A stretch of DNA of 49,867 nt from Ginglymostoma cirratum. Lineage: Eukaryota. Position 1 is the first letter of the stretch; each line of letters starts with the position of its first letter. Shown here in pieces: positions 7,858 to 30,881 of the stretch. The notes below the pieces were generated by a model. That model saw nothing but the letters and a program-made list of their open reading frames with translations. It had not been told where the DNA came from and did no database searches. The position numbers and the translations under genes are program-made. The DNA lies in assembly GCA_024137785.1 (NCBI GenBank), contig JAHRHZ010000018.1, positions 124,001-173,867 of the forward strand, in the 5' to 3' direction.

Positions 7858-7974
7858 CTATGTATATTTGATGGCAGCATACTCGGTTGACTCCTCAGTG
7901 ATCGCTGTAGCTGGCCGTTCGGTTTTCTTTCGGAAGAACTGGATATCAGCATAGTACAACTCCCCTTCCTCCAA
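7858..7974 (-). CDS. Terminal coding exon with ITIM and ITSM
   Basis: Acceptor tctttcattgtgtttcag|TTG, phase 0. LEEGELYYADIQFFRKKTERPATAITEESTEYAAIKYT* with TAG at 7860-7858. LYYADI (7942-7959) fits ITIM LxYxxI; TEYAAI (7870-7887) fits ITSM TxYxxI. Confidence 0.9.
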   Translation of the reverse strand: MEEGELYYADIQFFRKKTERPATAITEESTEYAAIKYT

Positions 7975-10731: not shown

Positions 10732-10772
10732 TGGAGGAGGGGACACAGTCATTTGTTTATTCTGCACTTCAG
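10732..10772 (-). CDS. Exon: cytoplasmic 2
   Basis: Acceptor ttcttatcttatttcag|CT and donor CCA|gtaagt; 41 nt, phase 1-0, bridging the previous exon to the terminal exon. AEVQNKQMTVSPPP. Confidence 0.78.
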
Positions 10773-10904: not shown

Positions 10905-11492
10905 TCGTGCTGAGAGTATGCCACACTGTCAGAAGGTCAGTACTAACAGAGTGCCACACTGCTGGAGGGTCTGTACTAACAAAGTGCAGCTCTGTCCGTG
11001 AGGGTCTGTACTGAGGGACTACCACATTGCTGGAGGGTCAGTACTGACAAGGGTGCTGCATTGCTGGAGGGTCAGTACTGATAGAGTGCCACACTGTCAG
11101 AAAGTCAGTACTGAGGGAGCGCCGCACTATCAGAGGGTCACTACTGAGGGAGTGCTGCACCATCAGAGGGTCAGTGCTGAGGGAGCGCCGCACTGTCGGA
11201 GGGTCAGTGCTGAGGGAACGCGGCACTGTCGGAGGGTCAGTGCTGAGGGAGCGCCGCACTGTCGGAGGGTCAGTGCTGAGGGAGCGCCGCACTGTCGGAG
11301 GGTCAGTGCTGAGGAAGCGCCGCACTGTCGGAGGATCAGTGCTGAGGGAGCGCCGCACTGTCGGAGGGTCAGTGCTGAGGGAGCGCCGCACTGTCAGAGG
11401 GTCAGTGCTGAGGGAGCGCCGCACTGTCAGAGGGTCAGTGCTGAGGGAGTGCCACACTGTCAGAGGGTCAGTGCTGAGGGAGAGCTGCACTG
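10905..11492. repeat. Minisatellite, 33-bp unit (gagggtcagtgctgagggagcgccgcactgtcg)
   Basis: About 17 tandem copies, homogeneous in the middle and degenerate at the edges. The 33-bp period produces repetitive spurious ORFs on both strands. Confidence 0.95.
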
Positions 11493-11709
11493 TTGGACAG
11501 TCACTTGAGAGGGAATGGTCTTCTCCTGCTCCGATGTTCTAGTTTTGATTTGTACCTCATCCTTGTCTCTCTGATGTCTTCGCACAGGTGATGTGTGGTT
11601 GAAAATAACATGGGTACAAAAGTCATCCCATAATGTTTGATAATTAGTGTTAAACAACAAATATCATTTGGAATGGTCACCAGCGTGGATATTGAATTAG
11701 TTGCCTTAC

Positions 11710-11753
11710 CACTGACTGTTGCATACACCGCATTAAGCTCTTCTTCAGATGTC
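11710..11753 (-). CDS. Exon: cytoplasmic 1 (ITIM-like AVYATV)
   Basis: Acceptor ccatttcaaacag|G and donor AGTG|gtaagg; 44 nt, phase 2-1, matching the TM exon. (G)TSEEELNAVYATVS. Confidence 0.8.
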
Positions 11754-13575: not shown

Positions 13576-13711
13576 CCTTCTGGTTTTGATCGGTGCTGAA
13601 AACAGGCCCATTTCTTCACATAAAGAAGTATGATGAGAAAGATGCAGAGTAGGACAACAAATGCCAGGGCAATGCCAATGATTATCATTAACCACCACTC
13701 TTCAGATTGCT
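13576..13711 (-). CDS. Exon: transmembrane segment and juxtamembrane region
   Basis: Acceptor ttttggtatcttacag|AG and donor GAAGG|gtaatt; 136 nt, phase 1-2. EQSEEWWLMIIIGIALAFVVLLCIFLIILLYVKKWACFQHRSKPE: a long uncharged helix followed by KK. Confidence 0.9.
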
Positions 13712-16657: not shown

Positions 16658-17002
16658 CCATTACTGTCAGCTGGGTTCCATTCCCATTGATATCTCCCCA
16701 CACTTTACAGTAATAGACCCCAGTGTCACTGGGCTGCATATTTGTGATGGTCAGAATGAAGCTGTTACTGGAGGGGTCTCTGGAAGACTGGAATCGCTCA
16801 GTCAATCCTGGGCTCCATTGTGTGATGTTCCTCACGTCATGTGTTAAAACCCACTTTGTGTTGTTCCCCGGTAGCTCCCAGTACCAGTGAACATCGGTGT
16901 GTGTCACTGCGGCATTCCTCATGGTGCACTGTAACCGGGCAGTGTGACCCTCAGTGACATGTTCCAGGCTCGGAGACTGGAGAAGGACTGGGATGTTTGC
17001 AA
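16658..17002 (-). CDS. Exon: Ig V-set domain D4
   Basis: Acceptor cttgccttaaag|TT and donor ATGG|gtaagt; 345 nt, phase 1-1. ANIPVLLQSPSL...LQCTMR...VHWYWELPG...DTGVYYCKVWGDINGNGTQLTVM. Confidence 0.93.
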
Positions 17003-17140
17003 CTTTAAGGCAAGAATATAAACAATGTACAAACTGGACTGCAATCTGAAAATTGTCCTCAATATTTCAGTTGAAAAGTCAGTCAGCATGCACTATCTTG
17101 TCATGAACGCACAGAAATAAAACTAAGCAATTTAGAAAGA

Positions 17141-17523
17141 TCCCAAAACCAGCCCAGCTCATCTCCACCTCCCTAACCTGTTTTTCCACTCACCTCAAGC
17201 CACACCCCCATCTCCTATCTACTAACATCATCCCGCCCCCCTGACCTGTCCGTCCTCCCTGGACTGACCTATCTCCTCCCTACCCCCCTACCTACACTCA
17301 CCTTTACTGGCTCCATCCCCGCCTCTTCGACCTGTCTGCCTCCTCTCCACCTATCCTCTCCTCTATCCATCCTCTATCCGCCTCCCCCTCTCTCCCTATT
17401 TATTTCAGAACCCTCTTCCCGTCCCCCATTTCTGATGAAGGGTTTAGGCCCGAAACGTCAAGTTTTCCTGCTCCTATGATGCTGCTTGACCTGCTGTGTT
17501 CATCCAGCCCCATGCTTGTTATC
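17141..17523 (+). mobile_element. Penelope-like 3' terminal fragment of the same family
   Basis: Near-identical to 27877-28260, with the same end gcttgttatc. Flanked by ttagaaaga (17132-17140 / 17524-17532). Confidence 0.88.
17428..17463 (+). ncRNA. Minimal hammerhead ribozyme motif in a Penelope-like terminal repeat
   Basis: ATTT-CTGATGA-aGGGtttaggCCC-GAAA-CGTC-AAGT: conserved CUGANGA and GAAA boxes, a GGG/CCC stem II, a palindromic ACGT helix III, a GUC cleavage triplet and a short helix I. Confidence 0.7.
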
Positions 17524-18199
17524 TTAGAAAGAAAACCAATCTGTCTTTAAAATGCACATGCAGAATCTTACAAAAAGGCTCCCATAAATCACATGACTTC
17601 CTTTACAGATTCACCTGCAATTGGAATCTCTCCGTAATTATCGGAGGGAAAACGACAAGGACAGTTTTGAATGTTAGTGAACTTTCTGAAAGATAAACAG
17701 AAACTCATTGGCAGTACCATCTCTAAAGGTCTGACTGTCTCCTCCTGTATCATCAAAAACCTGAAAGAATGTGAGGTATAAACAGAGAATGCTGGAGAAA
17801 CTCAGCAGGTCTGGCAGTACCTGTGGAGAGAGAAACAGAGTTCACGTTCACAACTCACTCAGCTCAATGCCGGGAGCTGCCCTTACAGCTGACTCCTGGG
17901 GTGTCCACATAACATGGCTGCTCTCAGCCAGATGCTAATACATTTCACATTTCAAAAATATACCTGCACCCAAACCATCAAACCATGTCAGTTATTGTGT
18001 TATCCCCGTCTGGAGCACTGATCCTGCATTGTCCTGGAGCTGAGGAAATGAACTTTTTAACTGTCTCAGCCTTTAGAAGCAGAGAACCCTTGTGATACGG
18101 AAGGAGGCCATTCAGCCCATCAAGTGTACAGCGACCCTCCAAAGAGCATCCAACCCAGACCTACCCCCTACCCAAGTCCTGTGAACTTGCATTTTCCAT

Positions 18200-18425
18200 G
18201 GCTAATCCACCTATCCTGCATATCCCTGGATACTATGGACAATTTGGCACGACCATTACACCTAACATGCACATCTTTGGACTGTGGGAGGAAACTGGAG
18301 TACCCGAAGAAAGACCATGCAAATATGGACACAATGTGCAAACTCCACACAAACAGTCGCTCGAGAATAGAATTGAACCGGGTCCATGCAGCAGTGGGGC
18401 AGCGATGCTAAACAACATGCCGCCA
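18200..18425 (-). mobile_element. HE1-like V-SINE
   Basis: Minus strand shows a tRNA head and the V-SINE core tgtgtggagtttgcac...ccagtttcctcccacagtccaaagatgtgc. Confidence 0.75.
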
Positions 18426-19697
18426 ATAGGTGCATGGGCTCTTAATCATGTTGGTAAAAGCAAAATAACACGGATTTCTAGAAATCTGAAATCAAACAGA
18501 AAGTTCAGGAGAAATTCAACAAGACTGGTAGCATCAGTGGACAGAGAATCAGAGTTGAAGTTTCGAGACCAAATTTTGCTTCATAACAGATTTGAAGAAG
18601 GATTATAAAAAAAAATCAAACAGTGGCTACAAGAACAGGTGAAAGGCTGGGAATCTTCCAAGGAAAATCTCACCTCCTGGTTTCCCCAGGACTGTCCACT
18701 ATCCACTAAGATCATGTCAGGAGTTTGATGGAAAACACTGTATTTACTCGGATGAATAAGGCTTTAATATCACTCAAGAAGTTTAACAGCATCCAAGACA
18801 ACACAGTGCACTTCTTCATAATCCCATCCACCACCTTAATGTCCACTCGCTCCATCACCAACACTCTGTCACTGCAGTGTGTACTATCTATAAGATGCAC
18901 TGCACAAATTCACCATGGTTCCTTAGACAGCACCTTTCAAATCCACACCCACTTCCATCTAGAAGGACAAGGCAGCCAATACGTGGGAAGCCACAACCCT
19001 CTGCAAGTTCCCTTCCAAGCCACTCACCATCCCTACTTGGAAATACATTGTTGTTCCTTCTGTGTCCTGGGTCAATGTCCTGGTATTCCTTCCCTAAGGG
19101 TATTGTGAGTCTACTTACATCACATGGACTGCAGTGGTTCAACGAGGCAGCTCACTATTGCCTTCTCAAGGGGCAACTAGCGATGGGAAATAAATGCTGG
19201 CCCAGCAAGTGATGCCCATGTCTCATGACTGAATAAAAGCAGACATCAGGTTCACTAATATCTTTGATGGACAGCAATCTGTAATCTTTTGTCTGACCAG
19301 TATATAAATCCAGAATTGTGGCCAGCTCCAAGCTGCCCACTGAAGCAGGTGGGCAACATGCTCATGATATCAAAACTTTAAACCTGTAGATGTTCAGAGA
19401 GGCAGCTCACAGCCACAAACTGAACGGTAATGAGAGACGAGCAATAAACGCTGGTCTAGACCAGTCACACCCACATCCTATAGACGATAGGAAAAGCATC
19501 GACTCATTCTCATGTTTCCACAATTCAACCCTTCCATTTTATCTCTGGAACAAACTTTCCCACTGTCCATTTCATGCCCCTACATGAAGCATGTTGAATG
19601 AAATTACAAGATTCCACCTGTCTGCTCTACTGTGTGAAGGTAAAACAGTTCCCAGTCAGATCTGTGAGGCTACCAGCATTCCCTCCCATTGCCTTAC

Positions 19698-20045
19698 CAG
19701 TTACATTGAGCTGGCTCCCTGCTCCATAGATGTAGCTCCACACACTGCAGTGGTACACAGCAGTATCATTGAGAGTCACATTCACAAGGCTCAGAATGTA
19801 ACTGTTCCTGCCGACGTTCCTGGAAACATGAACACGATCGTGGAAACCCTGTGCCTTGGTGAGGGTGCCATTCACAAACTGGCTTATCACCCACTCCGTG
19901 TTGCTGCCAGGTCGCTGGTAGTGCCAGTGTACATCAGTGTCATTCACACTGGCATTGTACATGGCACACTGGAACTCGACAGTTTCACCCTCTGGTACCT
20001 TGCTGATCACTGGATACTGAATGAGGACTGGATCAGCCAACGGAT
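19698..20045 (-). CDS. Exon: Ig V-set domain D3
   Basis: Acceptor gtttttcacacccag|AT and donor ACTG|gtaagg; 348 nt, phase 1-1. DPLADPVLIQYP...FQCAMY...VHWHYQRPG...DTAVYHCSVWSYIYGAGSQLNVT. Confidence 0.93.
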
Positions 20046-21806
20046 CTGGGTGTGAAAAACAGATGGAGGTTAACGCAAAGAAATATATTACTCCATCTTT
20101 CAAATCTGAGTAAAATCTCAGAAAGGTTTAATGGTCACCTGCCGTTTAATGCACTACTTTCTAAGGTCAGGGGCCAGAAATAGTACGACCCAACAGGGTG
20201 CACTCTGTCAGCCGTGGTTTATTGGGAGCACCGTGAGTCTGAGGTGGAAGGTGATGGGATTCCCATCCCCTCCTGAGGTTTCAGCAGACATCGGGACCAT
20301 CCAGAGCAGCACAGAGGCAGTGAGTTTGGAACAGCCAGCACTGACCTGAGGTGTTAAAACAAGCCTGTCCTTACAGGAGGATGTGAAAAATTCCCAGGGT
20401 ATCATTCAAGCATCAAAAGAAGAGTTCAGCCAGTTTTCGGGGATGGGGCTATTCATTACAATGCTGTTTGTTGGATCTTTCTATGTATTTTCTCCACCCG
20501 TGACTTCAATGTACCTCATTGGCCGTAAATTATGCTCGGACCCTCTGAGGTTGTGAAAGGTGTTACTGAATAAACAATCTAATTCTTTCATCGTTTCATG
20601 CTGCTGCAACAAAATGACATTGAAAAATTGGGATAAGACATCTCCAAATCTGGGAATAATTTGCTAAGGAGTTGCACTGTACTGATGCAAGGTGCTTATG
20701 TGGAGAGCTGTAACTGTGTGGTGTCCCATCCTCAGGGATAGTCAGACAGAGAATGAGACTCAGAGTGATTGTTCACTCTGCTCACAGGGAGAGGGGACAA
20801 GGACCAGTTTGTCAAGATGTATAAAAGCAAATTGCTGTGGGTGCTTGAAAACTGAGATAAAAACAGAAAGTGATGGAAAAACCCCAATACATCTGGCAGT
20901 ATGTCTGGAGAAAGAAAAAACAGAGTTAATATTCTGGGTTCTGAACAAGTCAATTTGGGCTTGAACTTTAACTTTGTCTCTCTCTCTACAGATGTTGCCA
21001 GACTTGCTGAGTTTCTCCAGTAATTTCTGTTTTTACTATAAATAAATATCATTGACTTGATATAAGAGGTATAACTTCTAAGTTTACAGATGATTCAGAA
21101 ATTTCATGAAGGACAGAAGAGGAGCAGACTATCCAGGACAAAGCAGCCCGCTCAATTGCCATCACATCCACGAACATCCACACTCTCCACCACCAGCACT
21201 CAGTAGCAGCAGTGTGTACCATCCACGAGATACACTGCAGAAATTCACCAAGGCTCCTGAGACAGCGTCTTCCAAACACATGACCACTTCCATCTGGAAG
21301 GATAAGGGCAGCAGATAAATGGGAACACCACCCCCTGCACGTTCCCCTCCAAGCCAGTCACCATCCTGACTTGGAAATATATTGTTGTCCCTTCACTGTC
21401 ACTGGATCAAAACCCTGGAAATCCCTCCCTAAGGGCATTTTGGGTCAACCCACAGCACCTGGACGGCAGCTGTTCAAGAAGGCAGCTCACCACTATCCTC
21501 TCAAGGGGCAACTAAGGATGGGCAATAAATGGCCACCTGCCAAAATGAATTATTCTTTTTAAGTATTTCCATTGAGTTTGAGGAACTGATCACTTCTGTT
21601 CTGAGGTGAAATTGTTACAGAAGATGAATTCCACAATGTCATACTCTGAGGGAGAAGTAACAGCTCCATGGAATATGGGTCAGAAATATGCTGGCAACAC
21701 CACAACCCCAAGTCTCCAGTCCTCGCTCCTCTTTACTGGGAGTGTAAAGTTACTGAGTTCACCATTTTGATGCTGTTTTGCATAAAACAAATTTTCATAT
21801 ACTTAC

Positions 21807-22151
21807 CAGTTACAGTCAGCTGGGATCCATTTCCACTGATATCTCCCCACACTTTACAGTGATAGACCCCAGTGTCATTGGGCTGCACGTTTGTGATGGT
21901 CAGAATGTAGCTGTTATTGGAGGAGTCTCTGGAAGACTGGAATCGATCAGTGAATCCTGGGCTCCATTTTGTGATGTTCCTCACGTCATGTGTTAAAATC
22001 CACTCTGTGTTATTCCCTGGTTGCTCCCAGTACCAGTGAACATCGGTGTCTGTCACTGTGGCGCTCCTCATGGTGCACTGTAACTGGGCAGTGTGACCCT
22101 TGGTGACACGTTCCAGGCTCGGAGACTGGAGAAGGACTGGAGGGTTTGCAA
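21807..22151 (-). CDS. Exon: Ig V-set domain D2
   Basis: Acceptor tttttcttttaaaag|TT and donor ACTG|gtaagt; 345 nt, phase 1-1. ANPPVLLQSPSL...LQCTMR...VHWYWEQPG...DTGVYHCKVWGDISGNGSQLTVT. Confidence 0.93.
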
Positions 22152-23039
22152 CTTTTAAAAGAAAAAGTGTGAATAAATTAAAACTAGTTTGAAGCCTGTT
22201 AAACATCTGAAATACTTAATGAGAAGCAGAGCCGCTTATGTTACCTTGGGTGAACTCCAACCTGTTATCAATCAGCCTGATCGGAAAATCTCACGATTTC
22301 TTTAATTTGAAGAATAAGATCTGATGTTCAGCCACTTCCTCCTCGTGCATAAACTTGTTGCATCTCCGTCCCTCATCCCCAGTCACTGCAGAATCTTCCC
22401 AGTATTCTCCCCACACCACCTTCATATTTCCTAATGACTCAGTCCCCATTTATTAATTGGGAGGGAATGGCCCAGTGGTATTATCGCCGGACTGTTAATC
22501 CAGAGACCCAGGTAATGTTCTGGGGGCCCAGGTTCAAATCCTGCTATGGCAGATGGTGGAATTTGAACGTAATAAAAATCTAGAATTGAGAGTTGACCGT
22601 GACCACATTATCGATTATTGGGAAAAACCCATCGAGGTCACTAATATCCATGAGGGAAAGGGAAACTGCTATCTTTCCTGGTCTGGCCTACATGTGACTC
22701 CAGACCCACATTGAGTTTGAGGAATTGATCAATACTGTTCTGAGGTGAAATTGTTACAGAAGATGAATTCCAAAATGTCATACTCTGAGGGAGAAGTAAC
22801 AGCTCCATGGAATATGGGTCAGAAATATGATGGCAACACCACAACCCCAAGTCTCCAGTCCTCGCTCCTCTGGGCAATTAGGGATGGCCAATAAATGCAG
22901 GCCAGCCAGTAATGCCCACATCCCATGAACTCTCCCTTACTGTACTTTATCCTTTATGATACAGCTCACAGAAGTGAGAGTTTCTTCAAACTCAATGTCA
23001 TCAAAACCCTCCTCAAACAAGTCAGTCAAGTGACTGAGA

Positions 23040-24435
23040 AGACCGGAGGTTGGCTAATGTGGTGCCATTATTTAAGAAAAGTGATAACAAAAAACTAGGG
23101 AATGATGGACCAGTGAGCCTAAAGTCAATCCTGGGTAAACTGTTGGAAGGGATTCTGAGGCTCAGGATTTACATGCATTCAGAAAGACAAGGATTGATTA
23201 GGTATAGTCAAGAGTCTTTGTGTGTGGAAAATTGTGTCCCACTAACTTGAGATTTTTGAGGAGGGAGAAAGAAGTCTGATGAAGACAGAATGGTAGACGT
23301 TGTCAATGTGGACTTCAGCAAGGCATTCGACAAGGTTCCGCATGGTATCCTGGTAAGCAAGGATCACATGGGGTCCAGGGGCACCTAGCCAATAGGACAC
23401 AAAATTGGCTTGAAGGTAGGAGACAGAAGGTGGTGAGGAAGCCTGTGACTCAAGGATCTGTCGTGGTTCTATTGCTTTTTGTCATTTATAAGAATGATTT
23501 AGGTGTGAATATAGGAGGCATGGTTAGTAAGTTTGCAACTGACACAAAGATTGGTGATATAATTGACAACGAAGAAGGTTATTTCAGAGTACAATTGGAC
23601 TTTGATCAGATGGGCCAATGGGCCAAGGAGTGGCAGATGGAGTTTAATTGTGATAAATGTAAGGTGTGCATTTTGCTATGGCAAAGCAGTGCAGGACATA
23701 TACAATTAATGGTAGGGTTCTAGGGCGTGTTGCCAAAAAAAGAGATCTAGAGGCGCAGGTGCATAACTCCTTGAAAGTGGGGTTCACAGGTAGACAGGGT
23801 AGTGAAGACGATGTTTGGCATACTTAACTCCATTGTTCAGTGCATTGAGTCTCGTAGTTGAGATATCATTTTGCGGCTGTACAGGATATTGGTTTGACCA
23901 CTTTTAGAATACTGCATTTAATTCTGGTCTCCCTGCTACAGGAAAGTTGTTGTTAAACTTGAAAGGGTTCAGAAAAAAATTACAAGGATATTGCTGAGGT
24001 TGGAGGGTTTGAGTGACAGGGAGAGACTGAACAGGCTGGGGATATTTTCCCTGGAGCATCAGGGGCTGAGGGGCGACTTTAAAAAGTTTATAAAGTCATG
24101 AAGTGCATGGATAGGGTGAATAGCCAGGTTTTTTTTTCTTGGGGTAGGAGAGTACAAAACTAGAGGGCATAGGCTTAAGGTGAGAGGAGAAAGATTTAAA
24201 AATGATCTGAAGAGCAACTTTTTCATGCAGAGCGTGGAGTGTGTATGGAATGAGCTGCCAGAGGAAGTGGTGGAGCCTGGTACAATTACAACATTTATGT
24301 TGGATGGATATATGAATAGGAAGGGTTTAGAGAGATATGGGCCAAAAGCTGGCAAATGGATTTCGGTCAGATTGCAATGTCTGATCAGCACAGATGAATT
24401 GGACCAAAGGGTGTATTTCCATGCTGTATGATTCT
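23040..24435 (+). mobile_element. CR1-type LINE fragment (decayed RT and 3' end)
   Basis: ANVVPLFKK, QGSV...LLFVIYKNDL...SKFATDTKIG and FFMQSVECVWNELP, broken by frameshifts. Confidence 0.9.
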
Positions 24436-25889
24436 AAGTCACCCGAGTCCATTTGTACTCCCTGCTACTGCTGCTGCTGCTGACTCTTCATCTAATCTCC
24501 ATTCCTTACATTCTCAAAACGATCTGTTCAAATCCATCCAGTTCAGCTCCCAGCTCAGAGCATTGAGCTTGGACCCTGCTCATCCATTGCTGGAGGCAGA
24601 CACTCTCTCACTGACTGAGATACTGTGGGAGAAAATTTCTGTTGTGGAAAGTCTGTATGGATTTCATTACATTCCAGAGAAATATGAAAATGGGAGCTAA
24701 ACCCAGGGTGAATTGCCCCCCCTCCGTGTCCTCTCTCTCATTGTCACTCAGCTGCCCATTTCAAATGGGTTCTCACAGCTTCCAAATGGCACACCAGGGA
24801 AATCTGCTAGAAGCTGGGACTGAAGGAGTGCTTGAGAGTTATCTGCGTTGTTTTCGTTGTTGCACTTTTTGTCTCTGGGTCAATGTCTGCCTGATGTCTC
24901 ATTTAGCATTGACCTCTAGCTGCTTTCTGGAACCTGTCAAGTTGTGAAGCTCCTTCTCTGACTCCTGTGTCCAGCTTGGAGCTTCACCAATATTGACCCA
25001 CACCCACCCCACACCCCATGACCTTGGTAATGACTCCTGTAAGTTTACACAAGGAAGTGAAGTTTAGGAAGGGCCAAAATGTGGAATAAAGCTGACAGAC
25101 AGGGGAGGCAAGATTTATCGGGGATTGGGGTGGCAGATATGAAAATAGTGTCAAGGTCATAACCAGATCAGCAATTAACTTATCAGATGAGGGAGCAGAC
25201 TGAGGAGCTGAATGATCCTATGTCCTAGGGTTGTACATGGCTCAGCAGATTGACATCCCTCGGAATTGGTCCTTGAATATCTGGTTTTCTGTCTCAGTGG
25301 GGACTCAGTGCTGGAGGAGGGATCCTGTGGTCAGTCTCCCTGGGAAATCTTCATGTTTCTTCCTCGATCAGTCAGCTTCCAAATATTTCGGCTTCACTGG
25401 CAAATCCCCCCCAGCCCAGAGTCAACATCAACAATCCCACACATAACCACCCCAAAGTTACAATGCACGTCACTTGTCCTGAAATCTCCTTCAGTGACTC
25501 AGTGTCAAATGCAGGTCGGTAAACACTCCTGTGAGATGTTTTTGAATATGTTGCTGCCAGCAAGGTGTTAGAAAAGTTCACCACCACAAGCCCAGACTGA
25601 GAGGGTTATGCTTCAGGACTTGGCCAGCTTGGTTAATGTCGATACAATGGATGCTCAGAGAGAGCTTTGGATCTATTCAATCCTTTACCCATGTGGAGTT
25701 TATCGGAATTATGCTCATCACCGGTGGATGAAGGACTGGAGTTTTCCTCATTGGACTCTGGGTGTGCGGAGGGGCAGGATAATGGAGAGGGAGTGAAAGG
25801 GGTTTGAGGTGGGGCTTGCTAGAGGTGTCGGGTGGGGGTGTCAGAGTGATAGGTCAAGAGGGGTAATAGAGTGGAGGGCACGGGACACT

Positions 25890-26883
25890 ATGAACATGTA
25901 AAGTAAACAGTATAAATAGAGCATTTGGACCATCTAGCCTGCTCTGCCATTCAAAATGGTCATAGCTGATCACTTTGTTGAGAATTCCATTTGTCCCGAT
26001 AACATTTGGTCCACCTATGTCTTAAAAAAGTCCCACCTCCATGGCCTTTTGATGCACAGCATTCCAAATTTGCAACACCCTCTGTGAGAAACAAAACATC
26101 TCCTCATCTCTGTCCTAAGAGGTCAATCACTAAATTTACACAGTGCCCCCTGGTTCTGGACTCACCAACAAGAGGAAACATCCTTTCCACGTCCACCTTG
26201 TCAAAGCCATAAGGGATGTGATACACTTCAATCAAGATGCTCCTCACTCTTCCAGACTCCAGGGGACACAAACTCAGTCAGTCCAACATTTCCTCATCAA
26301 ACAACCCACTCATTCCAGAGGTTAATCCAATCAGCCTTCTCTGAGCCACTTCCAATACATTTACGTCCTTCCTTCAATTAGGCAATCAAAACTGCACACA
26401 GTATTTGGGATGTGTTCTCACTAATGCCCTGGATAACTACGACATAATACCTTTCCTTTTGGGTTCAATTCTTCTGAAAAATGAAGGTTAGCATCCCATT
26501 AGCTTTCTTGACTACATGCTACATCTGTATCCTAATACTTTGCAACTCACACCTGAAAATCTAGATCTCTCCACACCTTGGAATTCTGCAGTTGTTCACC
26601 TTTTAATTAATGCTCTGCTTCTTTACTCTTCCTGTAAAATACAGCAACTTCACATTTTGCTGCATTGTACTCTATCTGATATGTTGAATGAGTGGACAAA
26701 ACTCTATCACTATCCATCTATATCTCCTTTTGATATCTTCACAACACAATTTCCAATCTAACTGGAATCGGCTGTGACTTTAGCTGACATGCCCTCTCTC
26801 CTCGTATATTGGTGTAAGTTGAGGCCCCAGAACAGACTGTTGTGGGATTCCACCCATCACCCCCTGCTGATCAGAAAGAAACA
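25890..26883 (-). mobile_element. Old CR1 fragment interrupted by the Penelope-like element (continues to ~28400)
   Basis: CR1 3'-end and RT motifs on the minus strand; the sequence resumes after the target-site duplication. Confidence 0.7.
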
Positions 26884-26897
26884 CATTTCTGTATTCT

Positions 26898-28260
26898 GGG
26901 TCTCTCCAACACTTGTCTCTCCTTCCTGGACCTCTCTGTCTCCATCTCGGGCAACCACCTAGAAACAGACGTCCATTTCAAGCCCACTGACTCCCACAGC
27001 TACCTGGAATACACCTCCTCCCACCCACCCTCCTGCAAAAATGCCATCCCCTATTCCCAATTCCTTCGCCTCCGCTGCATCTGCTCCCAGGATGAGACAT
27101 TCCACTCCCGCACATCTCAAATGTCCTCATTCTTCAAGGACCGCAACTTCCCCCCCACAGTGGTCGAGAACGCCCTCGACCGTGTCTCCTGCATTTCCCG
27201 GAACACATCCCTCACGCCCCGTCGCCGCAACAATAACCAAAAAAGATTCCCCCTCATCCTCACATACCACCCTACCAACCTCTGGATCCAACGCATCATC
27301 CTCCGACACCTCCGCCATCTGCAATCAGACCCCACCACCAAAGACATTTTTCCCTCCCCACCCTTATGTGCCTTCCGGAGGGACCACTCCCTCCGCGACT
27401 CCCTTGTCCGCTCCACACTCCCCTCCAGCCCCACCACACCCGGCACTTTTCCCTGTGACCGCAGGAAGTGCTACACCTGCCCCCACACCTCCTCCCTCAC
27501 CCCAATCCCAGGCCCCAAGAAGACTTTCCACATCAGGCAGATGTTCACCTGCACATCTGCCAATGTGGTATACTGCATCCGCTGCACCCGTTGTGGCTTC
27601 CTCTACATCGGGGAAACCAAGCGGAGGCTTGGGGATTGCTTTGCAGAACACCTGCGCTCAGTTTGCAACAAACAACTGCACCTCCCAGTTGCGAACCATT
27701 TCAACTCCCCCTCCCATTCCTCAGACGACATGTCCATCCTGGGCCTCCTGCAATGCCACAGTGATGCCACCCAAAGGCTGCAGGAACAGCAAATCATATT
27801 CAGCCTGGGAACCCTGCAGCCCAATGGCATCAATGTGGATTTCACAAACTTCAAAATCTCCCCTCCCCCAACCGCATCCCAAAACCAGCCCAGCTCATCT
27901 CCACCTCCCTAACCGGTTTTTCCTCTCACCTCAAGCCACACCCCCATCTCCTATCTACTAACATCATCCCGCCCCCTTGACCTGTCCGTCCTCCCTGGAC
28001 TGACCTATCTCCTCCCTACCCCACTACCTACACTCACCTTTACTGGCTCCATCCCCGCCTCTTCGACTCGTCTGCCTCCTCTCCACCTATCCTCTCCTCT
28101 ATCCATCCTCTATCCGCCTCCCCCTCTCTCCCTATTTATTTCAGAACCTTCTTCCCCTCCCCCATTTCTGATGAAGGGTTTAGGCTCGAAAAGTCAAGTT
28201 TTCCTGCTCCTATGATGCTGCTTGACCTGCTGTGTTCATCCAGCCCCATGCTTGTTATCT
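26898..28260 (+). mobile_element. 5'-truncated Penelope-like retroelement (RT C-terminus, Cys linker, GIY-YIG endonuclease, 3' terminal region)
   Basis: ORF 26842..27912 contains FLDLSV..., KPTDSHSYL, CDRRKCYTC and NVVYCIRCTRCGFLYIGETKRRL (GIY-YIG). Flanked by the 14-bp direct repeat catttctgtattct (26884-26897 / 28261-28274). Confidence 0.92.
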
Positions 28261-30527
28261 CATTTCTGTATTCTCTCTGTTTTCAGCCAGCCAGCCAATC
28301 TTCTATCTATACTATTATGTTACCTCTGACACATGAGATTTTATCTGCTGCAGTAATCCTTGATGTAACACTTTATAAAATGTTTTTTGGAAATCCAAGT
28401 ACAGTATGCTCTGAAGTCATTAAACCTGTCACACTCCACAATACCAACTCTAATATAACCTACTATCTGATAGTTTCTGACAGCAGCATGTTATAAAATC
28501 ACTCTCCAAAGCATTCTATAAACTCTGCATCCAGGCTATTATTGTCAATCTGATTTTTCCAGTTTATATGTAGATTTAAATCACTCATGATCTATTCCCT
28601 TTATCACAGGCACTCAATATTTCTTCTTGTATACTTTCTTCCACACTGTGGTTGCTGCTGTTGGGCCTGTAGATCACTCCCATGAGTGACATCTTTCCTT
28701 TACTATTCCTCATCGGCGCTCAAACCAATTCCACATCATGATCTCCTGGAACAATGCGTCTCCAGTTGTTGCACCAATGTTATAGAGACATACAAACTAG
28801 GACTAGGAGTCGGCCCTTTGAGCCCACTCCAACATTCAATACAAACTGGCTGGTCATCTAAAATCAGTCTCTTGTTCCTGTTTTCTCCCCATACCCTTTG
28901 ATCCCATTAGCTCGAAGAACTTTATCGCCTTCTTGGAAACACTCAATGTTTTGGCTTCAAGCTTGTTTAACAGTGTTACCCTTTCACCTTTTACCTAGCT
29001 TTTTCTTGACTCTATGGGGTCCTTGGGAGTGCAGGGTGGAACCTGTGGTGATTGAGGGGTATGCAACAATTATGGGAAGCACAGAGGAAGGGTTTTAACT
29101 CCACGGTGTGTTTGTGACTTCACCGGGGTTAGTTTCCAGTTGCTTTGGAGGGGGCGGGGGTATGAGATGATGGGGTCTGAGACATAGACTGCTCCTGAAA
29201 GGGTGCTGAGAGGGAGGGTGAGGTGAAATTTCAGCAATCCCAGTGTGGATAAGGGTTAAGGGTGGATTGGGACCTGGAAAGGTGGACAGCATTAGTTGCA
29301 GGTGGCAAAATGTCTGGCTCCTGAACTCAGGTGCTGGTGATGTAGGGGTGGGTAGAAGAGAGCTATTGAGGGGTGGAGATCTCTTCGAGACCTGGGTTGT
29401 ATGTTTGCGGTTGCCCTTTCATGAGACAGACACAATGTTCCTGGAAGGTAGGAGTAAAGTCCCTGCCATCACAGATCCACTGAGCCCCAGGATGGGATCT
29501 TGCTGTCAATTTTCCTAAGGCTTGGGAAAGCTGATGACCACGGTTAAAGGTGTAGATCTGAACAACACTGAGGCTCACAACCTCATTGTAATATTTAAAG
29601 GAACAGCCTGCCTTCTGGGACCAGATTGGTCATCCACTGACCATCTGAGCCAAATCAAGCTGAAAGGGATGGGCACAAAGTTTGTTTGGGATGGAATTGG
29701 ATTTTTAAGACTTTAACTGATCCCTACACACATCACCCTATTAATTCCCAGAGACAACAATTTTTATTTCTTTGGGCTTTAGCTGCTCTGTCTATTTAGA
29801 GTTAACTGTACAAGAACTAATTTCTACAGGGATTTTCCACTGGAAAATCATGGGTAACGTCCTGAATGTTCAATATATTTTCCCAAATGGGTGAAACTCT
29901 AAGGTTATTGCCTTTACAGCCAGTTTGATACTTTATACTATAGTGGTTATTTAAATTGTCCATTTTCAACTCACAGATTCCAGACTCCTCGTAGGTTGCC
30001 CTTGTTCCCTCTTTGGGTTCCAGCCTCCCCTGGAGTGCTATGTCCTGTGACGACTCCATTCAAATACCCCAACCACAGAGAGAGACCTCATTAGCAAAGA
30101 GTTTCCTGGTAGTCCTGTCTCTTAACAATGCAGTAGCTGAGGAATATGATTCCACATTCCCTAATTACAACTGACAAGATCGTCCGTTGTAGGGTATAGT
30201 CACAAGAGATATTTGGTTTCTTCGATGGGTTCACATTTGGTAATAAGTATTTATTTTTATATACATCCCAGTCAATGTCTCCATGTAATCAGGCAGCTTT
30301 ACTTATTCTGATCATTGTTCCTTTTCCTCAACACTAACTGAACTCTGTGTAAGATGTTGTATCACATTCACATGCTCATTTGTTCAGTTCAATACAAATT
30401 TTACTCTGTTTTGAGGCGATAACTTCCACTGTATAAGTGACGATGTTGTCACATTCATTTCTTTGTGAGATGGTAATTTAATCAGAATATTTGGGACAAA
30501 ATTAATATAATATTAGGGAGTACTTAC

Positions 30528-30881
30528 TGGTTACATTCAGGCGGGTTCCGTTTCCGAAGATCTTGCCCCAAATATCACAGATGTAGGTATTGGTGTCAGT
30601 GAGCTGCAGGTCTCTGATGGTCAGAATGTAGCTGTTACTGGTTACATTTCTGGAAAGCTGAAACCGCTCAGAGAATCCGCTCGATCGGTAAACATGGCCG
30701 TTTACATAATGGCTCATTATCGTAGGCCCACCTCGGGAATGGTGCCAGTGTAGATCATATTTGCCCACAGTGATATCAGCATTGCTGCTTCGCAAATCAC
30801 AGCGAAATGTCACTGTGCCACCCTCAGTCAGTGTCACAGCTTCAGGGGATTGGATAAGAATTGTCTGTGCATCCGCCTGAC
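30528..30881 (-). CDS. Exon: Ig V-set (VJ-type) domain D1 of a 4-V-domain inhibitory receptor, including the end of the signal peptide
   Basis: Acceptor ttttttattcacag|GT and donor ACCA|gtaagta; 354 nt, phase 1-1. Reads (G)QADAQTILIQSPEAVTLTEGGTVTFRC...LHWHH...RFQLSRNVTSNSYILTIRDLQLTDTNTYICDIWGKIFGNGTRLNVT, with canonical Cys/Trp/Cys, DxxxYxC and an FGxG J motif. ADA|QT resembles a signal-peptide cleavage site. Confidence 0.93.

Follow-up and report, generated by a model that had tools for sequence, protein, structure and literature searches.

A four-domain VJ receptor gene of Ginglymostoma cirratum and its family in cartilaginous fish: probable co-option of a germline-joined sigma-2 light-chain exon

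We analyzed a 49,867-nucleotide stretch of the Ginglymostoma cirratum genome (contig JAHRHZ010000018.1, positions 124,001 to 173,867 of the forward strand), hereafter called the window, in which four V-domain exons are parts of one intact, spliced minus-strand gene for a type I membrane protein. The gene comprises a leader exon located beyond the window, four exons that each hold V and J parts together (VJ exons), an exon for an uncharged transmembrane helix, and a cytoplasmic tail with an immunoreceptor tyrosine-based inhibitory motif (ITIM) and an immunoreceptor tyrosine-based switch motif (ITSM). It belongs to a multigene family that spans sharks, rays and a chimaera. Sequence comparisons indicate that a germline-joined VJ exon of the immunoglobulin light-chain (IgL) isotype sigma-2 was probably co-opted into this innate paired receptor family before chimaeras and elasmobranchs split. 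The balance also tips, if only slightly, towards the broader statement that this is an undescribed paired innate receptor family, at least as old as that split and built from a RAG-joined sigma-2 exon. The exons of the gene are as follows (positions in the window unless a contig is named).

Leader exon, phase 1: G000:C18:181685-181739 (locus L001), 7.8 kb beyond the window end; located by tblastn of residues 1-19 of the whale-shark model P0008 (18/19 identical), with a GT donor
V1 exon, V and J together, carrying the end of the signal peptide: 30528..30881, minus strand
V2 exon, V and J together: 21807..22151, minus strand
V3 exon, V and J together: 19698..20045, minus strand
V4 exon, V and J together: 16658..17002, minus strand; predicted V-set fold (pLDDT 93); splice to the transmembrane exon seen in reads
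Transmembrane exon, helix without a charged residue: 13576..13711, minus strand; introns on either side spliced in reads
Cytoplasmic exon 1, AVYATV (TVYATV in orthologues): 11710..11753, minus strand; spliced in reads
Cytoplasmic exon 2: 10732..10772, minus strand; spliced in reads
Last coding exon, with ITIM LYYADI, ITSM TEYAAI and the stop codon: 7858..7974, minus strand; spliced in reads

All four VJ exons are flanked by AG/GT on both sides and are in phase 1, and the nine exons join into 594 codons without an internal stop, with AG/GT at all boundaries checked. The encoded protein (594 amino acids) matches P0008 at 535 of 594 positions and carries 17 N-glycan sequons in its ectodomain. The transmembrane exon and the three cytoplasmic exons were located by tblastn with homologous proteins as queries, and the motifs in the last exon are named after the consensus definitions of ITIM and ITSM. 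Read evidence begins at V4 and ends with the last exon: run X22 contained 2, 3, 2 and 5 polyA raw reads, respectively, from which the four introns of this part, with CT..AC ends, are spliced out, and the same four junctions were also present in contigs of X1 and X2. None of the listed holders of the V4 stretch is recorded as RNA; X22 is an RNA run taken in by its species label. Run X23 gave neither exon coverage of the gene nor junction reads. For the joins from the leader through V1, V2 and V3 to V4, the support comes from splice signals and from gene models of orthologues. Between V2 and V3, another possible leader was rejected, being preceded by a stop codon and having no in-frame start codon.

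The V exons matched the Pfam V-set domain with E values of 5e-13 to 4e-19, and their features were above chance. The original prediction, made from the letters of this DNA alone, had listed [VL]HW in the C strand, a D-E strand motif, and C-x-[VI]-W followed by x-G-x-G. All of these are present in the four exons, as LHW or VHW, R[FV]xxSR[DN]xxxNS[YF]IL, and the junctions CDIWGKIFGNG, CKVWGDISGNG, CSVWSYIYGAG and CKVWGDINGNG. Six residues separate Cys104 from position 118 in each of them, and the same length was found in 290 of the 292 parsed domains of 108 homologues (22 of 314 domains were missed by the regular expression, 20 of which have six residues by eye), bearing out the very short and fixed complementarity-determining region 3 (CDR3) that had been proposed. 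Each of the four domains has the two canonical cysteines and no more. In five Callorhinchus members of the family (P0184, P0193, P0203, P0224 and P0231), the junction contains extra cysteines (CCVWGDVCG), which could form a CDR3 disulfide. The V and J parts are contiguous within a single exon, and no exact recombination signal sequence (RSS) occurs anywhere in the window, in agreement with the claim that none lies between V and J. RSS-like sites with three mismatches number four in the window and zero within exons, one of them lying in an intron about 50 bp upstream of V1. Structure prediction, which had also been proposed, gave an AlphaFold model of V4; the structures listed as matching it best are antibody V domains and VpreB (TM score about 0.85-0.9), in a PDB that is dominated by antibodies. 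In sequence searches of the PDB, most matches were antibody constructs with several domains, and the searches were not discriminating.

By similarity, sigma-2 was shown to be the nearest V relative of the family. After the family itself, the best matches in this genome lie on contig C168, where a split light-chain cluster (V, RSS-12-like, RSS-23-like, J and the constant light-chain domain, CL) and a joined one (leader, VJ and a C1-set CL) are both present. Among the relatives of these clusters are records from horn shark, under the name Igsigma-2, and from skate, under the name type I light chain, by which the isotype is settled as sigma-2 (also called NS5, type I or sigma-cart) with the synonym table of PMC5985310. 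A profile of the family was run against 1.84 billion representatives, and the best 150 by whole-protein score, together with matches of earlier searches, were rescored per domain, so that single-domain relatives below about 95 bits could be missing. On this basis, sigma-2 V domains reached 95-131 hidden Markov model bits, the next non-family V domain 65 and IGSF3-like domains 40-41. A later search added light chains from a catshark (84 bits) and a caecilian (80 bits), and teleost sigma with no more than 61 bits. Mean identity to the family was 39.5% for sigma-2, 33.0% for sigma-2-like, 29.1% for lambda, 28.1% for kappa, 27.2% for teleost sigma, 25.7% for T-cell receptor (TCR) gamma, 23.9% for IGSF3-like and 23.3% for NITR-like sequences. 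The strict D-E strand motif occurs in 114/314 family and 9/68 sigma-2 domains, its relaxed form in 168/314 and 60/68, and neither was found in the other V domains tested. For reference V domains without a name of their own, the labels (TCR, VH, lambda, kappa, teleost sigma, NITR-like, IGSF3-like and CD8-like) were given from RSS, from the C exons linked to them and from generally known sequence features. Thus, of the TCR-gamma- or Ig-light-chain-like signatures originally proposed, the antigen-receptor type of the VJ domain held, and the affinity to TCR-gamma and lambda did not.

The catshark and caecilian light chains (P0325 and P0326) form a second lineage of the sigma-2-like kind, and by their C domains they group with sigma-2 (94/95); the isotype table of PMC5985310 has no amphibian sigma-2 entry. 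Neither a shark sigma V nor an orthologue of P0325 was found in searches of this genome, by which their absence is not established. The joined sigma-2 gene on C168 (L079:4239-6154, about 86-88 kb) has a six-residue CDR3, an xxWGYI junction, and L rather than F at position 118, and is conserved in three other carpet sharks (P0109-P0111). It may be the joined sigma-2 reported as the partner of the neonatal IgM1gj. The joined six-residue genes nest among carpet-shark sigma-2, and the other parsed sigma-2 junctions are 8-11 residues long; the match with the family in junction length is therefore likely convergent. The C168 gene was also rejected as a direct donor, since it nests among carpet-shark sigma-2 whereas the family reaches the chimaera.

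The tree that the original prediction had proposed was built from the V region up to three residues past Cys104, with J excluded. P0191 (broken end) and P0342 were left out of all trees, and a reduced tree lacked another 40 rows, which either had long branches or were redundant within the family or sigma-2. In the full tree of 102 rows (LG+G4), the family and sigma-2 formed clades with support of 73/94 and 96/95, respectively. In the reduced tree of 62 rows, calculated under a mixture model, the family was supported at 100/98, its union with sigma-2 at 98/90, and the addition of the catshark and caecilian sigma-2-like sequences at 96/89. The best trees thus nest the family with sigma-2; IGSF3-like rows, of the adhesion type, fell inside the family in one tree with long branches.

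The family is large and varied. A homologue search directed at longer proteins gave 108 matches among 140 candidates, and all species-named ones are sharks or rays. Seven divergent matches that were looked up are Callorhinchus milii proteins, and the family therefore predates the chimaera-elasmobranch split. Its members contain one to nine V domains. Among the 108 homologues, 43 have tails with ITIM and ITSM, 21 have tails resembling the immunoreceptor tyrosine-based activation motif (ITAM; YxxL-x(6-8)-YxxL/I), and none has both, so that the family looks like a paired receptor family. The related ectodomains, opposing tails and gene cluster (on C18 and C19) expected of such receptors are all present. 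A charged residue in the predicted helix was found in only one of the 108. The tail, the paired ITIM/ITAM family and the link to sigma-2 go beyond what had been predicted from the DNA.

By analogy, the window gene likely encodes a putative inhibitory leukocyte receptor. Its V domains are likely to act singly, as unpaired modules in a chain, because the residues of the VL-VH pairing interface (Fv interface) are degenerate in the family and a glycan sequon occupies position 120 in the J motif of 146/312 family domains. At position 118, 107 of 312 family domains have S and 46 have F, as against 31 with F and 15 with Y among 51 domains of sigma-2. The fixed length of CDR3, set against a variation among paralogues that peaks in C'-C'', suggests that the C'-C'' face binds ligand. 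In the mechanism we propose, the glycosylated V domains would bind a cell-surface ligand, probably by this face instead of CDR3; Src-family kinases would phosphorylate the ITIM and ITSM, by which SHP-1 and SHP-2 would be recruited; and the kinases drawn to the ITAM-tailed paralogues would be those of the Syk family, in line with other paired receptors.

As to origin, the original prediction had left open a pre-RAG-type exon or the co-option of a germline-joined segment, and the latter is the best reading of the present data. A germline RAG event preceding the chimaera-elasmobranch split would have joined V and J of sigma-2; behind the leader and VJ exons, transmembrane and signalling exons would then have taken the place of CL; and the VJ exons would have been duplicated as phase-1 modules, giving the present range of domain numbers. 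Sharks provide documented cases in which a RAG-like activity joined such genes in the germline (PMC2193156). A number of results weigh against this reading. The alignment is short (about 101 columns), and the tree rows included no shark sigma, UrIg, NKp30, SIRP, or gar, coelacanth or turtle sigma-2. In the 102-row tree, the union of the family with sigma-2 received only 45%. When long-branch outgroups were put back, two IGSF3-like rows entered the family at 94% and strict union with sigma-2 fell to 2%. Neither a position of the family outside all sigma-2 (p=0.19) nor one with all non-rearranging outgroups (p=0.094) was rejected by approximately unbiased (AU) tests. Sigma-2 is about equally similar to the sigma-2-like pair (41.3%) and to the family, and HW is found in 261/314 family domains versus 1/68 of sigma-2. 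On the functional side, the ITAM-tailed members are gene models of other species, with no intact ITAM-tailed gene assembled in this genome, and the pooled ratio of nonsynonymous to synonymous substitution rates across 11 paralogous exons, 1.26 in C'-C'' and 0.29-0.93 elsewhere, is an estimate without a significance test.

The two AU results just given would also suit a never-split relic from before RAG, that is, a VJ exon near the ancestor of sigma and sigma-2 V whose likeness to sigma-2 reflects slow evolution. The window has no trace of an RSS, the family is old (it includes Callorhinchus), and sigma-2 itself is joined in gar, coelacanth and turtle (PMC5985310) and in skates (PMC5192425). 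We nevertheless consider this origin unlikely, given that the best trees nest the family with sigma-2, a grouping of all IgL without the family was rejected (p=0.018; control with the family, p=0.515), every named member is from a cartilaginous fish, there is no C1 domain, and the neighbours found, PTK2B and CHRNA2, are unlike the major histocompatibility complex (MHC) or antigen-receptor markers beside UrIg and UrIg2 (PMC12227049). A sigma-2 exon might instead have arrived by another route, as a retroposed mRNA of a rearranged light chain or as a V captured beside an existing G strand, with no germline join by RAG. The family on C18 and C19 and sigma-2 on C168 occupy separate contigs, as is also indicated in other listed species, so the exon has moved. 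This route seems quite improbable all the same, for the split leader with its phase-1 intron is kept as in sigma-2, an intron that a retrocopy would lose, and sharks are already documented to join such genes in the germline (PMC2193156).

Very little credence is due to a generic adhesion-type V-set protein (IGSF3/CD101-, JAM- or pIgR-like). The automatic RefSeq names, feature neighbours in the ESM Atlas (TIGIT-, pIgR- and MPZL1-like clusters) and the IGSF3-like rows within the family in one tree point that way. These rows have low scores (40-41 bits), 24% identity and end branches near 2 changes per column, and their position is read as long-branch attraction. In the same tree, the family, sigma-2 and the IGSF3-like rows united at 85%, and strict union of family and sigma-2 with both rows included was acceptable by AU (p=0.36). 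The structural matches of V4, within the antibody-dominated PDB, likewise fit antibody V domains and VpreB. Least probable of all is a derivation from TCR-gamma V, to which the HW and CxxW motifs had seemed to point: in this genome, all three TCR-gamma V segments (labelled by RSS-23 in 2/3 segments and by known sequence features) carry both, but HW is also present in a VH, a TCR alpha/delta-like V and an NITR-like V and is thus unspecific. With a mean identity of 25.7%, bootstrap support of 0% in three trees, and AU rejection of a union of the family with TCR-gamma (p=0.032), this origin was rejected under the model used.

Compared with known systems, the family resembles sigma-2 in its V domain (by HMM score, identity, D-E motif and best trees), in its split leader and in the existence of joined forms, one with the same six-residue xxWGYI junction. 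It differs in having no CL, in its tandem V domains, transmembrane helix, signalling tail and degenerate Fv interface, and in its locus. The light-chain layout of VJ followed by a C1-set CL, as in L079, is absent (the orthologue P0008 has four V-set and no C1-set domains), and Fv pairing of the sigma-2 type without a membrane anchor does not agree with the mixture of S, Y and F at position 118 or with the spliced transmembrane exon. The TCR-gamma layout (V with RSS-23, a separate J and a C1 constant domain) was not found either, in keeping with the lack of RSS. SIRP-alpha and PD-1-type receptors share V domains, an ITIM, a TxYxxI ITSM and the paired-receptor logic with the family, which differs by its four tandem VJ domains and lack of C1, a distinction drawn from the general description of those receptors and not from sequence. 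The SIRP ectodomain is V-C1-C1, and P0008 has no C1-set domain. NKp30 and XMIV have a single VJ, a charged transmembrane residue and MHC linkage, and MDIR, CD300 and pIgR-like proteins have an extra C-C' disulfide in the V domain; by such descriptions alone, the window gene, with four V domains, an uncharged helix and two cysteines per domain, is set apart from both groups. VpreB and the germline-joined V of marsupial TCR-mu are likewise non-rearranging derivatives of antigen-receptor V, but both remain within the antigen-receptor system, whereas the window exon would have moved to an ITIM/ITAM family. NITRs of ray-finned fish are multigene paired receptors with single-exon VJ and ITIM tails (bioRxiv 2021.06.11.448072). 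The family shares these features, but it has no six-cysteine I domain, in its activating members an ITAM-like motif of the protein itself stands in place of a charged transmembrane residue, and it shows 23% identity to two NITR-like rows and no grouping with them in trees. UrIg and UrIg2, in which VJ is combined with several C1 domains and linked to the MHC or an antigen-receptor complex (PMC12227049), share with the family a non-rearranging elasmobranch VJ exon and a split leader; the present family is V-only, multigene, with tyrosine-motif tails, and lies near PTK2B and CHRNA2 (flanks partly scanned). Taken together, the family appears to work like paired receptors of the NITR or SIRP type yet lacks the features that define either, and it is neither UrIg, NKp30 nor a light chain.

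Our literature search, outside of which most subscription journals lay so that a prior name is possible, found no description of the family or of any sigma-2-derived receptor, and a term search of the PMC3964593 supplement gave no ITIM or ITAM matches. The family is thus apparently unnamed so far. Single-exon VJ genes such as NITR, NKp30 and UrIg are usually taken as relics of the gene that the RAG transposon invaded. If the proposed origin is true, a single-exon VJ receptor can descend from rearranging antigen receptors instead of preceding them, which calls for caution in inferring relics; a component of adaptive immunity would have been recycled into fixed innate receptors; and germline joining in sharks would gain an evolutionary product beyond neonatal antibodies. 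The family also provides cartilaginous fish with candidates for leukocyte receptors of both the inhibitory and the activating kind, now masked by inconsistent automatic names (IGSF3/CD101-, JAM- and pIgR-like).

Of the 89 V matches in this genome, 43 are located close to where contigs C18 and C19 begin, and stops or frameshifts interrupt many of these. The many broken copies in both orientations (C18, 1-260 kb; C19, 783-1043 kb) fit birth-and-death turnover. The family neighbours are CHRNA2 on C18 and PTK2B on C19, two genes that are adjacent at human 8p21; clusterin is on another contig, C72. A Pfam scan of the flanks (100 of 781 unique open reading frames) matched only CHRNA2 exons and one reverse transcriptase fragment. 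In a family member at L070/L069 (C19, about 206-222 kb; models P0084 and P0100 bear on this feature), the second V exon extends into a long Asn/Gly/Ser-rich repeat stalk, rich in N-glycan sequons, before the transmembrane exon, and a similar stalk is present in a skate model. Outside the family, L084:4167-5153 (on C166) contains a single-exon VJ closely followed by a C1-set exon, a non-rearranging VJ-C1 gene. Within the window, the intron between cytoplasmic exons 1 and 2 contains a 33-bp minisatellite of 13 copies (11066-11497), and the V1-V2 intron an open frame of 364 amino acids (26818-27909, plus strand) without a Pfam match, which has a similar copy in L036 and presumably resembles a GIY-YIG (Penelope-like) retroelement.

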